Shown piece by piece: positions 16,507-44,477 of a stretch of 44,477 nucleotides of DNA. The notes under the pieces were generated by a model that made no database searches, was not told the origin of the DNA, and worked only from the letters and a program-made list of their open reading frames with translations. Numbering within the stretch: position 1 is the first letter of the stretch; each line of letters opens with the position of its first letter. Both the position numbers and the translations under genes were made by a program. The DNA is from a bacterium. Lineage in GTDB: Bacteria; Patescibacteriota; Patescibacteriia; JACQRZ01. The stretch lies in NCBI GenBank assembly GCA_030688365.1, contig JAUYIE010000012.1:1-44477 (forward strand). The letters are read 5' to 3'.

Positions 16507-16578
16507 AACTATTTTGAGGAAACTTGAAATAGTATCTCGCAATTTTTTGTTTTTTAGAGCAAGTTCTTACTCTTTATA

Positions 16579-16617
<39 letters not shown>

Positions 16618-17343
16618 TCTAAGGCATGCAAGTCGAACGAACCGATTTGAGTAGCAATACTTGATGAGGTGAGTGGCAGACGGGAGCGTAACACATTGGT
16701 AACCTACCCCGGAGTTTGGCATAACCCGCCGAAAGGCGAGCTAATTCCAAATACGTTTCGCGATCATATGGTTGTGAAAGAAAGGAGCAATCCACTCTTG
16801 GAGGGGCCTATGGCTCATCAGCTTGTTGGTAAGGTAAAAGCTTACCAAGGCTACGACGAGTAGCGGGTGTGGGAGCACGACCCGCCTCACAGGGACTGAG
16901 ACACTGCCCTGACTCCTACGGGAGGCTGCAGTCAAGAATATTCCCCAATGGGCGAAAGCCTGAGGGAGCGACGCCGCGTGCAGGACGAAGTCCTTCGGGA
17001 TGTAAACTGCTTTTGTGTAGGAATACTTACGAAGGTACTACACGAATAAGTGCCTGCTAAACTCGTGCCAGCAGCAGCGGTAATACGAGTGGCACAAGCG
17101 TTATCCGGTTTTACTGGGCGTAAAGGGTCCGCAGGTGGTTTTATAAGTTTGGTGTTAAATCCTGGTGCTCAACATCAGGGCCGCATCGAAAACTATAAGA
17201 CTAGAGGCTGGGAGAGGCATACGGAATTGCTGGTGTAGGGGTCAAATCCGTTAATATCAGCAAGAACACCAAAGGCGAAGGCAGTATGCTAGAACAGTCC
17301 TGACACTCAGGGACGAAAGCGTGGGGAGCGAATGGGATTAGAT

Positions 17344-18373
17344 AAATCCCAACCGTGGTTTGTGAAAACAAACGAGCGGTGAATGGTGTCCTTTTTGATG
17401 GCGACATCAAAATGAGCATTCAGCTATATCGGTGAAAACCCAAGAGATAAAGGTACTACTGCCTTTCTTGGAAAACCCCGAGGGAAGTTTTTCTTTTATG
17501 GAAAACCCCGTAGAGACTATGAAGATGGTCAACAGAGATAGAAGGTGCTAATCACTATGTTTATGAAACAAAATGATTTCGTGCCTTTGTCGGATCAAGT
17601 TCAGTCGATCATATTAGGATCGTTATTAGGAGATGGATCACTTACTTTCAATAAAGGGTATGCAAATGCGCGATTTACATTTCGCCATTCGCAAGTCCAA
17701 GAAGAATATTTTCAATGGAAAGCAATTCAATTGAAGGAAATTTCTTCGGATCGTGATGTTTTTTTGCAAAACCCTGATGGGTATTCAAAAAATAATAAGT
17801 TACGATATCAAAGTAAAGCGCTCCCCTCATTAACATTCCTTTATAAGGAAACTTATAAGCATAATCGACTTCGTATCAGAAGGAAATGGCTCAATACCAT
17901 GACTCCATTATCACTTGCGATTTGGTGGTGCGACGATGGGTCGCTCATATCAAATTCAAGAAAAGGAGTATTTTGTACTGACGGATTTGATAAAGAATCA
18001 GTACAACTTTTGTCGCAATATTTCAAAGTGGTGTGGAAAGTGGAGACACATTGTGCACCGATTGGAAGAAAACGCGATGGGAAGAAAGAAGAATACTGGA
18101 GGCTTTGGATTCGTTCTACTGACGAACTCAAAAAATTTCTTACTATTATTCTGCCTTATATACCTGTAGCATCAATGCTACAAAAAGCCCTTCTGCTCTA
18201 TAACGATCAACATCTTCAGCAACGCTGGATCTCTGAAGTAGTTACCCTTACTCATTTTTCAGAAGAAGTTGTACAACAACAACTAGAAGAAAAGCGAACT
18301 AAGTGGAAACGTTTCAGAGAATGATATAGTCCAATCTGTGTGGTAACATACAGTCCATAATATATGGAACATG
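17344..18373 (+). mobile_element. Group I intron 1 in 16S (near E. coli position 793/794), carrying a homing-endonuclease gene
   Basis: The 5' exon ends in U and the insertion ends in G. GNRA hairpin GTTTGT-GAAA-ACAAAC. Core-like motifs CTATATCGGTGAA, CCGAGGGAAGTTT, GGAAAACCCCGTAGAGACTA and GATATAGTCC are shared with intron 3 and partly with the tRNA-Phe intron. Confidence 0.7.
17557..18324 (+). CDS. Double-motif LAGLIDADG homing endonuclease (intron 1 ORF)
   Basis: Motifs ILGSLLGDGSL and IWWCDDGSLI. ATG 17557 is preceded by GAAGG. The ORF is open from GTG 17545. Confidence 0.85.
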   Translation: MFMKQNDFVPLSDQVQSIILGSLLGDGSLTFNKGYANARFTFRHSQVQEEYFQWKAIQLKEISSDRDVFLQNPDGYSKNNKLRYQSKALPSLTFLYKETYKHNRLRIRRKWLNTMTPLSLAIWWCDDGSLISNSRKGVFCTDGFDKESVQLLSQYFKVVWKVETHCAPIGRKRDGKKEEYWRLWIRSTDELKKFLTIILPYIPVASMLQKALLLYNDQHLQQRWISEVVTLTHFSEEVVQQQLEEKRTKWKRFRE

Positions 18374-18516
18374 ACCCCAGTAGTCCACGCCCTAAACGAT
18401 GGATGCTAGGCATTGGAGGTGTCGACCCCTTCAGTGCCGTATACCCAAGCTAACGCGTTAAGCATCCCGCCTGGGAAGTACGGCCGCAAGGCTAAAACTT
18501 AAAGGAATTGACGGGA

Positions 18517-18554
<38 letters not shown>

Positions 18555-18633
18555 ATAAGCGAGGAACCTTACCAGGGTTTGACATCCCGCGAATTTTTGA
18601 GAAATCAGAAAGTGCCCGCAAGGGAGCGTGGTG

Positions 18634-18677
<44 letters not shown>

Positions 18678-18973
18678 AGTTAAGTCTTTTAACGAGCGCA
18701 ACCCTCATCTCGTGTTACTTTTCACGAGAAACTGCCTCGGATAACGAGGAGGAAGGTGAGGATGACGTCAAATCAGCATGGCCCTTACGCCCTGGGCCAC
18801 ACACGTGCTACAATGGCCGATACAATGGGTCGCCAAGTCGCAAGACGGAGCTAATCCCACCAAAGTCGGCCTCAGTTCGGATTGGAGGCTGCAACTCGCC
18901 TCCATGAAGCTGGAATCGCTAGTAACCGCGCATCAGCCATGGTGCGGTGAATACGTTCTCGGGTTTTGTACAC

Positions 18974-19897
18974 GGAGCGCTTGGTAGCATGCGCATCCAG
19001 TATGTGAAAGTCATACCAGAGAGATAGAGACTCTCTGAAGCGAAATTACAGTAGTGTTCTGTGAAGGCCACTATGGAGAGTAAGAGTAGTAGTAACCAGC
19101 TTGAGTATTTGTTTGAAGCATTCTTTGGTGACGATCCCCTGTGTACAGGGAGAAGTTATCTCTAACCTTATATTGAAGAATGTATAGAATACCTAAGATG
19201 GATACAAACGGATAGTATGTGACCCAAGGAGATCTTGTTTACTCCTGTTTCTCGTGGTATATTACCACCGAGAAAAGGTATATGAATTGGTAACAATCAT
19301 AAAAGGTATGCAAGAAGTCAGCAGATCCCATAGTACTTCAACAGAGGTTGAAGGAAGGGGTGAACCTAGCAATAAAAAAGCACTCTCGCCGTGGTATGTA
19401 GTAGGTTTTACTGACGGGGAAGGAAGTTTTTCAGTGAGTATCACTCATCATCGTACACTCAAAACACGAGTCGAGATTAGTCCCGACTTTTCAATTGAGT
19501 TGCGAAAAGATGATGAAGAAATACTGACACGAATTCAATCCCTTCTCGGCGTAGGAAAAATCTATTATGTACGTTTTAGGAATGAAGCGTGGCAAGACCA
19601 TGCAAAACTAAAAGTGAGAAGTGTGAAAGAGCTGCACGAAGTAGTGATCCCGTTCTTTCGTACCTATCCCCTTCAAGCAAAGAAGGCAAAAGTGTTTGAA
19701 ATCTTTGCAACGATAGTGGAAATGATGGTGCGCAAAGAACATCTTACTTATGGTGGGATACAAAAGATCAAAAAACTTCGAGAGCAGATGCAGATATTTG
19801 GAAAAAAATATCGCAACTAGGAACCGCCAGGATACGGGAAAACCGTTCGTCCGGTGGTGTGGGAGATACACAGTGGAAACACGTCTATAATCCCGAT
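18974..19897 (+). mobile_element. Insertion 2 in 16S (near E. coli 1397/1398), class unresolved, carrying a homing-endonuclease gene
   Basis: Splits TTGTACAC / ACCGCCCGTCAC with no positional ambiguity. The flanking exon base is C and the last inserted base is T. The motifs shared by introns 1 and 3 are absent. Confidence 0.6.
19308..19820 (+). CDS. Single-motif LAGLIDADG homing endonuclease (insertion 2 ORF)
   Basis: WYVVGFTDGEGSFSVS motif and a size of about 170 aa, typical of homodimeric family members. ATG 19308 is preceded by AAAAGG. The ORF is open from 19254. Confidence 0.8.
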   Translation: MQEVSRSHSTSTEVEGRGEPSNKKALSPWYVVGFTDGEGSFSVSITHHRTLKTRVEISPDFSIELRKDDEEILTRIQSLLGVGKIYYVRFRNEAWQDHAKLKVRSVKELHEVVIPFFRTYPLQAKKAKVFEIFATIVEMMVRKEHLTYGGIQKIKKLREQMQIFGKKYRN

Positions 19898-19984
19898 ACC
19901 GCCCGTCACGCCAAGAGAGTCGGTAACACCTGAAGAGGCTCGTTCGAGTACCTAGGGTGGGATCGATGATAGGGGCGAAGTCGT

Positions 19985-20813
19985 GAGTGCACTCTGCACA
20001 TTGTTGCGACCTTTCGAAGTAATTCGAAATGAGAAATCTGACTATATCGGTGAATCCCCTTTAATGTTATAGTTAAAGGACAATACCGAGGGAAGTTTTC
20101 TAAAGAGAGGTATTATGGCAAATACCAAAGTATTTCATCAGATGAGAGTAGACATCATTCTGAATGCGACCCAACGAGAAATCGTTGTTGGTACGGTGCT
20201 AGGTGATGGATCTCTTATTGAGACGTTTTCTAAGAAGAATTTACGTCTTCAGATTGAGCAGTGCGATGCGCAAAAATCGTATGTGTTCTGGAAATATGAA
20301 ATGCTGGAATCTCTGATTTGTACTCCTCCACGATATCAAGAGAAAAAGAAATCGTGGCGAGTGCGAACTATTAGTCACCCAGATATTACTGAAATAGGTT
20401 TCCATTTTTACAATGGAAGAAAGAAAGTGATACCAAACGATTTTGAACTGTTCCTAACACCACTGGCACTCGCTGTATGGTTTATGGATGATGGTTCAAG
20501 AGATCAAGTACGCGGAACGTATATATTGAATACTCAATGCTTTACAAAAGCAGAAGTAGAAAGAATACGGATCGCGTTACAAATAAAGTTTGGTCTATCC
20601 CCTATCTCAATACACAAAGATAAATCTGGTTGGCGCTTGTATATTCAGAAACCGTCAAGTAAACGTTTTGAGACAATTGTTTCACCGTTTATACTGCCGG
20701 TGATGGAATACAAAATAGGAAAACCCCGTAGAGACTACACGTCGGCTCCTGCAAAGCCATTCGCAGGATGAAGATATAGTCCGTGCCTCGTGGTAACATG
20801 AGGGTAATACATG
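19985..20813 (+). mobile_element. Group I intron 3 in 16S (near E. coli 1498/1499), carrying a homing-endonuclease gene
   Basis: The 5' exon ends in U and the intron ends in G. P1 pairs exon GUCGU with intron GCGAC (20006..20010), with a U-G wobble at the splice site. P2-like hairpin TTTCGAA-GTAA-TTCGAAA. Core motifs GGAAAACCCCGTAGAGACTA and AAGATATAGTCC. Confidence 0.8.
20115..20771 (+). CDS. Double-motif LAGLIDADG homing endonuclease (intron 3 ORF), paralogous to the intron 1 ORF
   Basis: Motifs VVGTVLGDGSL and VWFMDDGSR. RBS GAGAGG. The 3' end reads through the GTAGAGACTA core motif. Confidence 0.85.
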   Translation: MANTKVFHQMRVDIILNATQREIVVGTVLGDGSLIETFSKKNLRLQIEQCDAQKSYVFWKYEMLESLICTPPRYQEKKKSWRVRTISHPDITEIGFHFYNGRKKVIPNDFELFLTPLALAVWFMDDGSRDQVRGTYILNTQCFTKAEVERIRIALQIKFGLSPISIHKDKSGWRLYIQKPSSKRFETIVSPFILPVMEYKIGKPRRDYTSAPAKPFAG

Positions 20814-20948
20814 AACAAGGCACCCGTAGCGGAAGCTGTGGGTGGATCACCTCCTTTCTAGGGAGATAAAAAAATGTTTCCTCTCACGAGGAAAACAATT
20901 CTAAGGTCGAGGTTTTATGAAAGCAATTTCAAAGACTGTGTTCGCGAG

Positions 20949-21770: not shown

Positions 21771-21887
21771 AATTTCATCTCCTTTTCAGAATGAACAATG
21801 ATATTATTTGTTACCCTATAGAAGTGGGGTGGAAAAGTCAATAAGTATACAACAAAAAAGCATGGCTTGCACCATACTTTTTTGAAA

Positions 21888-22211
21888 TGCCGAGGGAGAG
21901 AATCGGACTCTCGACACGAGGATTTTCCAAACTCGCGTTCTTGGATTACTCCAAGGATCGGACTATATCATCATCCGCTCCACCGCAAACGATGGAGTGA
22001 GGAGCTGGGCGCTATCTGTGAGGTTATTGTTGGGACTCACTCACTAGTCTCTACACCTTCTAGGAAACTTTCGCCAATGGCGATATACCCTTCCTAGCTT
22101 GGCTCGGGATTGCCCCTAAGGGTTTCCCCGAATTCACCCAGTTTGTCATTTCACATTACTGTGAAAGGGACCGAAAACCAGTCCTCTGCTCTACCACTGA
22201 GCTACCTCGGC
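21888..22211 (-). tRNA. tRNA-Phe(GAA) interrupted by a group I intron; exons 22180..22211 and 21888..21927; no encoded CCA
   Basis: The spliced sequence is GCCGAGGUAGCUCAGUGGUAGAGCAGAGGACU|GAAAAUCCUCGUGUCGAGAGUCCGAUUCUCUCCCUCGGCA. It folds as a cloverleaf and closely parallels E. coli tRNA-Phe as recalled. Confidence 0.85.
21928..22179 (-). mobile_element. 252-nt ORF-less group I intron (IC3-like) in the tRNA-Phe anticodon loop, between U33 and G34
   Basis: P1 pairs exon GGACU with intron GGUCC, with a U-G wobble at the splice site and a 7-nt loop. The intron ends in G. Internal CCCGAGCCAAGC and GAAGGUGUAGAGACUAG match recalled Azoarcus tRNA-Ile intron sequence. GAUAUAGUCC is also present. 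Confidence 0.85.
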
Positions 22212-22254
22212 ATGTGGTACCTTCAAATAAAATGCCCGCAAGGGGCGCCTTTGA

Positions 22255-22331
22255 TGGTGGGCGTACCAGGATTCGAACCTGAGACCTCGACATTATCAGT
22301 GTCGCGCTCTAACCAACTGAGCTATACGCCC
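22255..22331 (-). tRNA. tRNA-Ile(GAU), CCA encoded
   Basis: Reverse complement is GGGCGTATAGCTCAGTTGGTTAGAGCGCGACACTGATAATGTCGAGGTCTCAGGTTCGAATCCTGGTACGCCCACCA. Cloverleaf with anticodon loop CTGATAA. Confidence 0.9.
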
Positions 22332-22387
22332 CTATATACAAAGGATATAGTAAGGGAAAAATCGAATTGTTGCAAGCCTTGGGTGAA

Positions 22388-23233
22388 TCAAATCTTTGTA
22401 CTCACGATATACTCTTCCAACGCCTCTTTGATTGATCGCATGGATGGAAGTTTTGTGTTTATGAGAGCGGAAAACAGAGGACGCTTAGCGACAGGAGTCG
22501 TCTTGCCTTTGTAATACTCATCAGTGCTGACGGGGGTGATCGTGTTGGCCAGACCCAGCAAAGACACAATGATTTGTGCAAGCCCATACAAGCTCATACC
22601 TCCTTCGTTGGTAATATGATATATGCCGACGGGCAGGCTATGGTCTAAAATATACTTAGTCTGTAACGCGAGGTCATGTGCGTGGGTGTAACAGTGCACC
22701 TGATCATCAACCACGGTGAGATCCTTTCCAGACTGCGCCGAATTTATGATAGCTCTGACAAAATTAAAACTACTCCCCCTTCCAAAAATGTATGAAGTAC
22801 GGATGATGTATGATCCTGCACACAGTTGTTCCATCAATGCTTTTGATTGCGCATACACGCTGATAGGCGATGGTGCGACGTCCTCTGTGTATCCATTTTT
22901 ATGAGTGCCGTCAAATACGTAGTCCGTGGAATATTGCACAAACGGTACTGCATACTCTTTGCACCATTTTGAAATATATCCTGGCGTGATGGCGTTGATC
23001 AAAAACGGTTCGCTTGTATTTATTTCCGCGCCGTCTACATCATTGTACGCCGCGCAATTTATTACGAGTGTTGGTTGAAATGTCTCAAGATATTCCACGA
23101 CTTTTGGCGGGCATGACAAATCAAGATCTTCAATCGCAATACCGTGCGGAGCATATTGTGCAAACACCTTCATGATCTCCTGCCCCAGCTGTCCCTGCGC
23201 GCCGATGACAAGAATTTTTCTGTATATATCCAT
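22388..23233 (-). CDS. rmlD: dTDP-4-dehydrorhamnose reductase family (RmlD-like) NAD(P)-dependent reductase
   Basis: 281 aa with the Rossmann motif ILVIGAQGQLGQ. RmlD-like length and blocks (STDYVFDG, YAQSKAL). Confidence 0.8.
   Translation of the reverse strand: MDIYRKILVIGAQGQLGQEIMKVFAQYAPHGIAIEDLDLSCPPKVVEYLETFQPTLVINCAAYNDVDGAEINTSEPFLINAITPGYISKWCKEYAVPFVQYSTDYVFDGTHKNGYTEDVAPSPISVYAQSKALMEQLCAGSYIIRTSYIFGRGSSFNFVRAIINSAQSGKDLTVVDDQVHCYTHAHDLALQTKYILDHSLPVGIYHITNEGGMSLYGLAQIIVSLLGLANTITPVSTDEYYKGKTTPVAKRPLFSALINTKLPSMRSIKEALEEYIVSTKI

Positions 23234-42581: not shown

Positions 42582-44477
<1,896 letters not shown>

Follow-up and report, generated by a model that had tools for sequence, protein, structure and literature searches.

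Does the interrupted transfer RNA gene on the minus strand of contig JAUYIE010000012.1 (assembly GCA_030688365.1), at positions 22211-21888, encode a functional phenylalanine tRNA whose transcript frees itself of an intron, or is it the remnant of such a gene? The window, by which we mean the whole 44,477-nucleotide (nt) stretch of DNA that was analysed, contains the two halves of a tRNA-Phe(GAA) gene, separated by a group I intron between U33 and G34. We found that this feature is real and precisely delimited, and its sequence makes it very probable that the gene works and that its intron splices itself. The intron belongs to the already catalogued Phe.2Ug class, and neither its host nor its position is new.

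The 5′ exon (22180..22211) supplies tRNA positions 1-33; it reads GCCGAGGUAGCUCAGUGGUAGAGCAGAGGACU (22211-22180, minus strand) and terminates in ...GAGGACU, its last base being U33. The 3′ exon (21888..21927) starts with GAAAAUCCUC, covers positions 34-73 from the anticodon GAA to the discriminator A73, and in full (21927-21888) reads GAAAAUCCUCGUGUCGAGAGUCCGAUUCUCUCCCUCGGCA. Between them lie 252 nt (21928..22179, minus strand) that begin with GGUUUUCGGUCC and end with ...GAGUUUG, the final G at 21928 being omega-G. An earlier note on this DNA had proposed that two tRNA halves lie 252 nt apart on the minus strand, that together they form a complete tRNA-Phe cloverleaf with the anticodon loop CUGAAAA, and that the sequence interrupting them is a group I intron whose last base is G. 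These proposals held throughout, with the coordinates and the distance exact to the base. ARAGORN identified the joined exons as a 72-nt cloverleaf of tRNA-Phe(GAA) and, when run with intron search on the unspliced DNA, reported tRNA-Phe(gaa) i(34,252). The Rfam group I intron model (Intron_gpI, RF00028) matched 22191-21939 of the minus strand over its whole length (model positions 1-253 of 253), at 69.3 bits, where the gathering score is 50, and with E = 1e-15. The assignment is further supported by helix covariation and by relatedness to a published intron, Mba55.Phe.2Ug.

At default settings ARAGORN missed the split gene, as did the Rfam tRNA model, and ARAGORN detected it only with the intron option. 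A genome annotated with default tRNA finders would thus seem to be without tRNA-Phe, which is a known pitfall for genomes of the candidate phyla radiation (CPR). Group I introns are frequent in CPR tRNAs (Lui et al. 2021, PMC8172020), and complete CPR genomes reportedly show a full tRNA set only if the tRNAs bearing such introns are counted (PMC8172020). Neither ARAGORN, including its intron search, nor Rfam found a second tRNA-Phe in the window, whether split or intact, in agreement with the remark that this is the lone copy there. If it is also the sole tRNA-Phe gene of the organism, splicing would be essential and all translation would depend on a ribozyme.

The intron opens with GG-UUUUC-GGUCC, which contains a 10-nt internal guide sequence (22168..22177) complementary to the ligated junction GGACU|GAAAA throughout, save for a G that stands opposite U33 as a wobble. 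The GGUCC part of the guide (22172-22168) pairs at all five positions with tRNA nucleotides 29-33, that is, with the GGACU that ends the 5′ exon (22184-22180), and so forms P1 with the U33·G pair at the 5′ splice site; this pairing, with its strands 7 nt apart, had been recognized correctly by the earlier note. The UUUUC part (22177-22173) pairs with GAAAA (21927-21923), with which the 3′ exon starts, and forms P10, again with 5/5 pairs.

Downstream of the guide, the helices of a group I intron can be delineated on the minus strand. P2 (22149..22166) is a hairpin of 7 base pairs (bp) with a GUAA tetraloop, L2. The P3 domain (22005..22141), in which P3 itself is formed by 22141-22135 with 22011-22005, encloses P4 (22131-22126 with 22109-22104), a 3-bp P5 hairpin (22122-22113), P6 (22103-22101 with 22057-22055), P6a (22097-22091 with 22066-22060) and a window-specific P6b hairpin (22082-22072); P5, read from the sequence, and P6b are variable or lineage-specific. 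The 5′ strand of P7, G-A(bulge)-GACUA (22045..22051), has its partner UAGUCC at 21965-21960, and by analogy with established group I architecture P7 would be the guanosine-binding helix. There follow P7.1 (22018..22044), a 27-nt hairpin with the stem GUGAG/CUCAC and the 17-nt loop UGAGUCCCAACAAUAAC (22039-22023); P8 (21974..22003), also read from the sequence, in which an internal loop lies between a 3-bp base and an 8-bp P8a closed by a UUUG loop; and P9 (21940..21955), a 6-bp hairpin with a GUAA tetraloop, L9. A 12-nt tail after P9 ends in omega-G. The 252-nt intron contains no open reading frame (ORF).

The conserved P3-P8 core is present, with a P3/P7 pseudoknot and a bulged P7 helix. The intron had been called Azoarcus-like on account of two core strings nearly identical to those in the pre-tRNA-Ile intron from Azoarcus. 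These strings, CCCGAGCCAAGC and GAAGGUGUAGAGACUAG, are indeed present and match the published alignment of Aol6.Ile2.5Ug, where the counterparts are printed as ...CGCCGAGCCAAGC... and GAAGGUGUAGAGACUAGA. The IC3 core signature (J3/4-P4, P6, J6/7-P7 and J8/7-P7) is found in strings held in common with Aol6.Ile2.5Ug and other IC3 seeds, and the periphery shows the compactness of IC3 introns: P2 is present, P2.1 and P5abc are absent, and GUAA loops cap P2 and P9. However, IC3 introns have no helix between P7 and P3′, where the window intron carries its 27-nt P7.1 hairpin. A helix inserted there (P7.1/P7.2) is a trait of subgroup IA and lies outside the IC3 plan. Because of this hairpin we have not filed the intron as plain IC3; its core is IC3-like and its P7.1 an IA-like addition. 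The likeness to Azoarcus thus holds for the catalytic core but not for P7.1, which Azoarcus lacks, or for P5, which is cut to 3 bp.

The earlier note knew of no described tRNA-Phe(GAA) host and of no insertion between positions 33 and 34. Neither statement stands. A screen of 80,413 bacterial assemblies (Williams 2020, bioRxiv 10.1101/2020.01.27.920355) raised the number of tRNA-intron classes from 4 to 21. The four classical settings (Leu.3Ug, Arg.5Ug, fMet.2Ug and Ile2.5Ug) are all IC3, and the label fMet.2Ug places the classical cyanobacterial tRNA-fMet intron after U33 too, while the seed Mba55.Phe.2Ug splits a tRNA-Phe past anticodon-loop nucleotide 2 (U33), with U-1 and omega-G (bioRxiv 10.1101/2020.01.27.920355). 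A tRNA-Phe host is thus documented by Mba55.Phe.2Ug and by 27 further split tRNA-Phe genes found here, and the insertion site by both Phe.2Ug and fMet.2Ug. Among nine published seeds compared, Mba55.Phe.2Ug was the closest to the window intron (76% identity over aligned positions), with Azoarcus at 69%. The window intron agrees with the Phe.2Ug class in its tRNA-Phe host, its site after loop nucleotide 2, its U-1 and omega-G, and its relatedness to the seed. Nothing about the locus is new in kind, its host and position having been listed by that computational survey of 2020. The preprint is so far the sole source for the class, and splicing of its members is a prediction.

Comparison with the nearest known systems defines what is particular to the window intron. 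The Mba55 seed resembles it in the tRNA-Phe(GAA) host, the site after U33, U-1, omega-G and the IC3-like core, and it also has a P7.1 hairpin, with the same loop (UGAGUCCCAACAAUAA) and a stem that differs by compensated changes; a metagenome locus, L235, has essentially the sequence of this seed. The two differ in their exons, which read GGACU|GAAAA (A37) in the window and GCCCU|GAAGA (G37) in the seed, with guides that differ to match. The seed has neither the P6b insert nor the GUAA-capped P9 of the window intron, and P5 is far shorter in the latter.

The Azoarcus pre-tRNA-Ile(CAU) intron (IC3, Ile2.5Ug), for which crystal and cryo-EM structures exist, is likewise small, ORF-less and inserted in the anticodon loop. 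It shares with the window intron the near-identical core strings AAUUCGGNGAAACC, CCGAGCCAAGC, GAAGGUGUAGAGACUAG and AUAGUCC as well as GNRA loops on P2 and P9, the 69% identity being taken over alignable positions. In contrast, it is inserted after position 36 of tRNA-Ile, whereas the window intron follows position 33 of tRNA-Phe; it has no P7.1 hairpin and hence no contact between L6a and L7.1; its P5 is long and bears a tetraloop receptor, where the window has 3 bp; and its P1 consists of 3 bp plus an extension, compared with 5 bp each for P1 and P10 in the window. The cyanobacterial tRNA-fMet intron (fMet.2Ug), reportedly the subject of Biniszkiewicz et al. 1994, also lies between U33 and the first anticodon nucleotide and has an IC3-type core, but it differs in its host tRNA, in the homing endonuclease carried by some copies and in the absence of P7.1 from the published seed. 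The tRNA-Leu(UAA) intron shares the anticodon-loop location and the IC3 core, but is inserted 1 nt further 3′ (34/35) and is without the P7.1 hairpin.

Relatives were sought in regular-expression scans, for which AACAATAA was a string used. When a single genome for each bacterial species was scanned for GAGCCAAG-N15-45-AAGGTGTAGAGACTA, a motif of the core, at least 120 loci (L001-L120) were returned. By ARAGORN, the host of these was by far most commonly tRNA-Leu(UAA); other hosts among the matches listed were Met/Ile(CAU), Arg, Ser, Thr, Asn, Asp and tRNA-Phe, the apparent hosts among them including Arg(UCU) and Leu(CAA) as well as Ser, Thr, Asn and Asp. The matches listed span Proteobacteria, Acidobacteriota, Bacteroidota, Chloroflexota, Planctomycetota, Omnitrophota, Cyanobacteria and CPR, and the motif also occurs on one Staphylococcus canis contig (L119), to which no host gene was assigned. 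ARAGORN isotype and splice-site calls on split genes were often wrong: the "Phe" calls for L017 and L085 were rejected since both are tRNA-Leu(UAA), the "Ile(GAU)" call for L042 was rejected since it is a tRNA-Phe, and calls of "Phe(aaa)", "Ser(aga)" and "Pro(agg)" are suspect. Splice sites were therefore re-derived by rule from U-1, omega-G and anticodon-stem pairing.

After the mis-calls had been removed, tRNA-Phe(GAA) split after U33 was found in metagenome-assembled genomes (MAGs) labelled Moraniibacteriota, Taylorbacteria, Ryanbacteria, Saccharibacteria and the "Patescibacteria group", and also in one MAG labelled Bdellovibrionales and one unclassified MAG. A metagenome scan for the P7.1 loop yielded 57 introns with the catalytic core, at least 25 of them in tRNA-Phe. 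Together these gave 28 distinct tRNA-Phe genes with the U33|G34 split (the window and 27 others), and such genes are widespread in CPR-type genomes and metagenomes.

U-1 and omega-G were present in all 28 genes, and the guide followed the exons in both exon classes: GGACU|GAAAA occurs with UUUUC|GGUCC, and GCCCU|GAAGA with UCUUY|GGGGC. When pairing was checked in each sequence, P1 formed on average 4.75 of 5 pairs and P10 4.93 of 5. About half of the genes show G37, with the anticodon loop CUGAAGA, where A37 is usual in bacterial tRNA-Phe (L123, L130, L136, L146, L155, L177, L184, L189, L206, L235, L041 and L098 included), with the P10 guide changed from UUUUC to UCUUY. This family of 28 genes is a clean example of an intron guide co-evolving with the anticodon arm of its host tRNA.

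Covariation in the intron helices was examined in a MAFFT alignment of 26 family sequences, A1. This alignment is unreliable in P1/P10, P5, P8 and P9; it is for P1 and P10 that the sequence-by-sequence check was made, and no conclusion on P5 or P8a was taken from it. The proposed structure paired 91% of the cells of A1, compared with 32-50% when partners were slid by 1-3 columns, and the observed covariation was reached by none of 500 shuffles. Every pair showed compensatory changes in P2 (7/7 pairs, 93% of cells paired), P6a (5/5), the P7.1 stem (5/5, 100% paired) and P9 (6/6, with 98.6% of cells paired among the 12 members that have this helix). P3 and P4 were each 100% paired with two covarying pairs, and all six pairs of P7 were unchanged in the 26 sequences. 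The base helix of P8 was paired in 83% of cells, the alignment being poor there as lengths vary, and P8a was not comparable. About half of the family lacks P9 (for example L136, L155, L042, L123, L146 and L177; A1 columns 301-361), and in these members 7-15 nt separate the 3′ strand of P7 from omega-G; a 6-bp P9 with a GNRA loop was seen in the window and about 11 others. The retention of this architecture with compensatory changes in 28 genes of different lineages implies that splicing is under purifying selection.

The tRNA that would result from splicing bears G10, U20, A26, G34, A35, A36, G44, U45, U59, U60 and A73, which are the identity elements of E. coli tRNA-Phe. Its cloverleaf and its GAA anticodon are thus accompanied by identity nucleotides of the E. 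coli type. CCA is not encoded in the tRNA-Phe gene, nor in the tRNA-Ile and tRNA-Trp genes of the window, whose 3′ ends were also read.

A tRNA-Ile(GAU) gene (22255..22331, minus strand; ARAGORN and Rfam) lies 43 nt upstream and is probably co-transcribed with the split tRNA-Phe. Right after the 3′ end of tRNA-Phe, a terminator-like hairpin followed by a U-run (21850..21884, minus strand) folds with -18.3 kcal/mol (z = -4.9), and no shuffle folds as stably; it was seen only by direct folding, the scan for promoters and terminators near tRNA-Phe having given nothing useful.

Taken together, these data make it highly likely that the tRNA-Phe(GAA) gene at this locus is functional and that its transcript contains, between U33 and G34, a group I ribozyme of the Phe.2Ug class, 252 nt long and devoid of an ORF. 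In the pathway we envisage, tRNA-Ile and the split tRNA-Phe would be transcribed up to a stop at the hairpin 21884-21850, and the intron would fold into its P3-P9 core. P1 would then arise by pairing of GGUCC with nucleotides 29-33 (GGACU), which would put U33·G at the point of cleavage and transiently open the anticodon stem by three pairs. Once bound in P7, free guanosine would attack after U33, while the guide UUUUC would hold 3′ exon nucleotides 34-38 (GAAAA) as P10. Omega-G (21928) could next displace the free guanosine, and attack by U33 would ligate the exons. The product would be a normal tRNA-Phe with the anticodon loop CUGAAAA, to which an enzyme would add CCA afterwards.

Three features weigh against this reading. 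P1 must compete with the anticodon stem; P5, with just 3 bp, offers a minimal version of the usual L9 receptor, so that a protein or chaperone might be needed; and the T-loop, UCCGAUU (21906-21900, minus strand), departs from the canonical U54-U55-C56 in having C55. U55, as pseudouridine, is near-universal in tRNA T-loops.

The second of these features bears on the possibility that a genuine intron is present which does not act autonomously as a ribozyme in the cell, a host protein or RNA chaperone being needed for it to fold and splice. The 3-bp P5 hairpin and the many family members without P9 point to thin peripheral stabilisation, and cases of group I splicing aided by proteins are well established in other systems, as with CYT-18 and CYT-19 (PMC3984707). 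However, small IC3 tRNA introns such as that of Azoarcus (~205 nt) self-splice efficiently in the absence of protein (PMC13168695; also established knowledge), and no candidate maturase was found encoded in the intron or adjoining it. The contact between P7.1 and L6a and the two GNRA loops could provide an alternative stabilisation, in which CC:GG helices in P8 and P5 are the probable docking sites of the GUAA tetraloops L2 and L9. We therefore regard a dependence on a protein or chaperone as unlikely.

That the locus is instead a decaying or silent copy, a tRNA pseudogene with a dead intron whose work is done by an intact tRNA-Phe elsewhere, appears very improbable. The unusual C55 could signal a defective tRNA, and the T-loops of the tRNA-Ile and tRNA-Trp genes in the window are the normal UUCGA. 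Yet C55 recurs in 6 of the 28 split tRNA-Phe genes (the window, L035, L139, L196, L201 and L228) and for this reason reads as a trait of the lineage, not as decay. The core helices, the U·G pair, omega-G and both guide pairings are all intact, as are all the tRNA-Phe identity nucleotides, and the gene is followed by the terminator-like hairpin. Moreover, the family has kept its architecture through compensatory changes, and the covariation of guide with exons is what would be expected if each lineage requires splicing, which makes it a strong comparative argument against a decayed intron. Finally, nothing was found in favour of a chance resemblance or an assembly chimera of tRNA halves and intron-like sequence, and both are ruled out for practical purposes by the RF00028 match (E = 1e-15), the exact match of the guide to both exons, and the 28-gene family, the arrangement recurring in independent genome, metagenome and published assemblies.

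A pairing of the P7.1 loop with L6a may be what this locus adds to present knowledge. The 5′ side of L6a contains GGG (22088..22090, minus strand), which is proposed to pair with the CCC of the P7.1 loop. As the P7.1 loop is nearly invariant in the Phe family, the evidence on this contact comes from other introns. In the published seeds Dba165.Lys.2Ug and Pam37.Asn.4Ug the loop differs and is complementary to the L6a of the same intron (AUGGC against GCCAU in the former, GCCU against AGGC in the latter). A scan of IMG/VR viral contigs for AGAGACTA-N4-10-GAG-N3-16-AACCAATAA returned 38 loci, 34 with a group I core, with more than 20 different loops. L6a tends to begin with GAA and to finish with AGUA, and L7.1 begins with GAG(G)A and finishes with AAC(C)AAUAA; at every one of these loci, the stretch directly 5′ of AAC(C)AAUAA complements those L6a nucleotides that follow the 5′ GAA (for example UGAACAA/UUGUUCA, UGUAAUA/UAUUACA and UAAGGAU/AUCCUUA).

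Across 23 L7.1 loop classes, cognate L6a/L7.1 combinations formed on average 4.8 Watson-Crick pairs and non-cognate ones 1.8, with equal register freedom for both. The cognate mean was reached in none of 20,000 permutations, in a test for which the loops were read by hand from printed sequences, a possible source of bias; less curated versions gave p values of about 2e-7 and 5e-6. A further 26 viral contigs have the window-type loop with CCC, and all 26 carry UGGG in L6a. Every examined intron with a P7.1 hairpin (23 loop classes) showed complementarity at homologous positions, and the pairing sequence varies freely while complementarity is kept, from GGG:CCC in the window to as many as 7 bp elsewhere. 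This covariation suggests that the L6a-L7.1 pairing is probably a tertiary contact that adds further stability to the window intron, in which it would take a minimal form, GGG (22090-22088) with CCC, as three invariant pairs.

About 60 viral contigs (L242-L279 and L280-L397) have group I introns with P7.1 and L6a, 26 of them with the exact loop of the window, and ARAGORN found no tRNA around these introns. The phage introns among L280-L397 are like the window intron in the L7.1 sequence UGAGYCCCAACAAUAA, in the UGGG of L6a and in core layout; several differ in having the UCAGAGACUA variant of J6/7-P7, and identity to the window is 75-90%, over short core stretches only. This distribution suggests sharing of the peripheral module, or of entire introns, between phages and CPR-type bacteria. 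The P7.1 loop motif was also seen twice per locus in L147, L298, L307 and L357, on the same strand and 260-2570 nt apart, and these may be two introns of the P7.1 type in proximity.

More tentatively, P7.1 and L6a might constitute a peripheral tertiary module, of which we found no description, that clamps the P4-P6 domain to P3-P9, occurs both in tRNA introns from CPR (Phe, Lys, Asn and others) and in many introns of phages, thereby linking the two, and acts as a modular substitute for the contact between the long P5 and L9 in Azoarcus; we hold this generalization to be possible but doubtful. A named L6a-L7.1 contact was not found in the literature searched, which omits the classical comparative papers on group I structure. 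The contact is thus a possibly new element and, if undescribed, a directly testable one.

The U33|G34 site of tRNA-Phe is occupied by introns of at least two peripheral designs, one with the single P7.1 hairpin of the window type and another with a two-hairpin insert. The latter consists of UYCC-N4-GGRAGUA and a variable hairpin, followed by GAAGCGCC; it occurs in a Taylorbacteria tRNA-Phe split at U33|G34 (L055:2639-2871) and also in several Thr, Asn and Asp hosts, and L026, L031, L050, L057, L058 and L114 are further loci with this design.

Elsewhere in the window, an ORF of 134 codons with a TTG start (22110-22514, plus strand) is antisense to the tRNA-Ile gene and to the intron in its 5′ part; presumably spurious, it might be annotated as a gene by mistake. 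The 16S rRNA gene (16572-20859, plus strand) is about 4.3 kb long, not 2.4 kb: the Rfam alignment stops at 18987, and the true 3′ end, GGAUCACCUCCUU, with the exact terminus GGATCACCTCCTT, lies at 20844-20856. It contains three intron-like insertions with LAGLIDADG ORFs. The first has a LAGLIDADG_2 ORF at 17545-18324 (plus strand) and a weak group I match at 18103-18353. The second, after ...GTACAC at ~18972, has a LAGLIDADG_1 ORF at 19254-19820 flanked by group II pieces, namely D1-D4 at 19279-19360 (50.8 bits) and domain V/VI at 19822-19897 (29.3 bits, below threshold). The third has a LAGLIDADG_2 ORF at 20115-20771 and a weak group I core at 20679-20803.

The 23S rRNA gene (42587-44477, plus strand) begins about 21.7 kb past the 3′ end of 16S, with protein genes and five tRNAs between, so that the two rRNA genes are unlinked. 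The rRNA introns, the unlinked rRNA genes, the CCA-less tRNAs and the relatives of the tRNA-Phe intron point to a CPR/Patescibacteria-like genome. In an exact-protein look-up the one match was a 3.4-kb Logan contig from SRR13727534, and the window's proteins, compared by tblastn with all the loci collected, reached no more than 52% identity. Near model position 290, the 23S alignment also has about 64 nt inserted.

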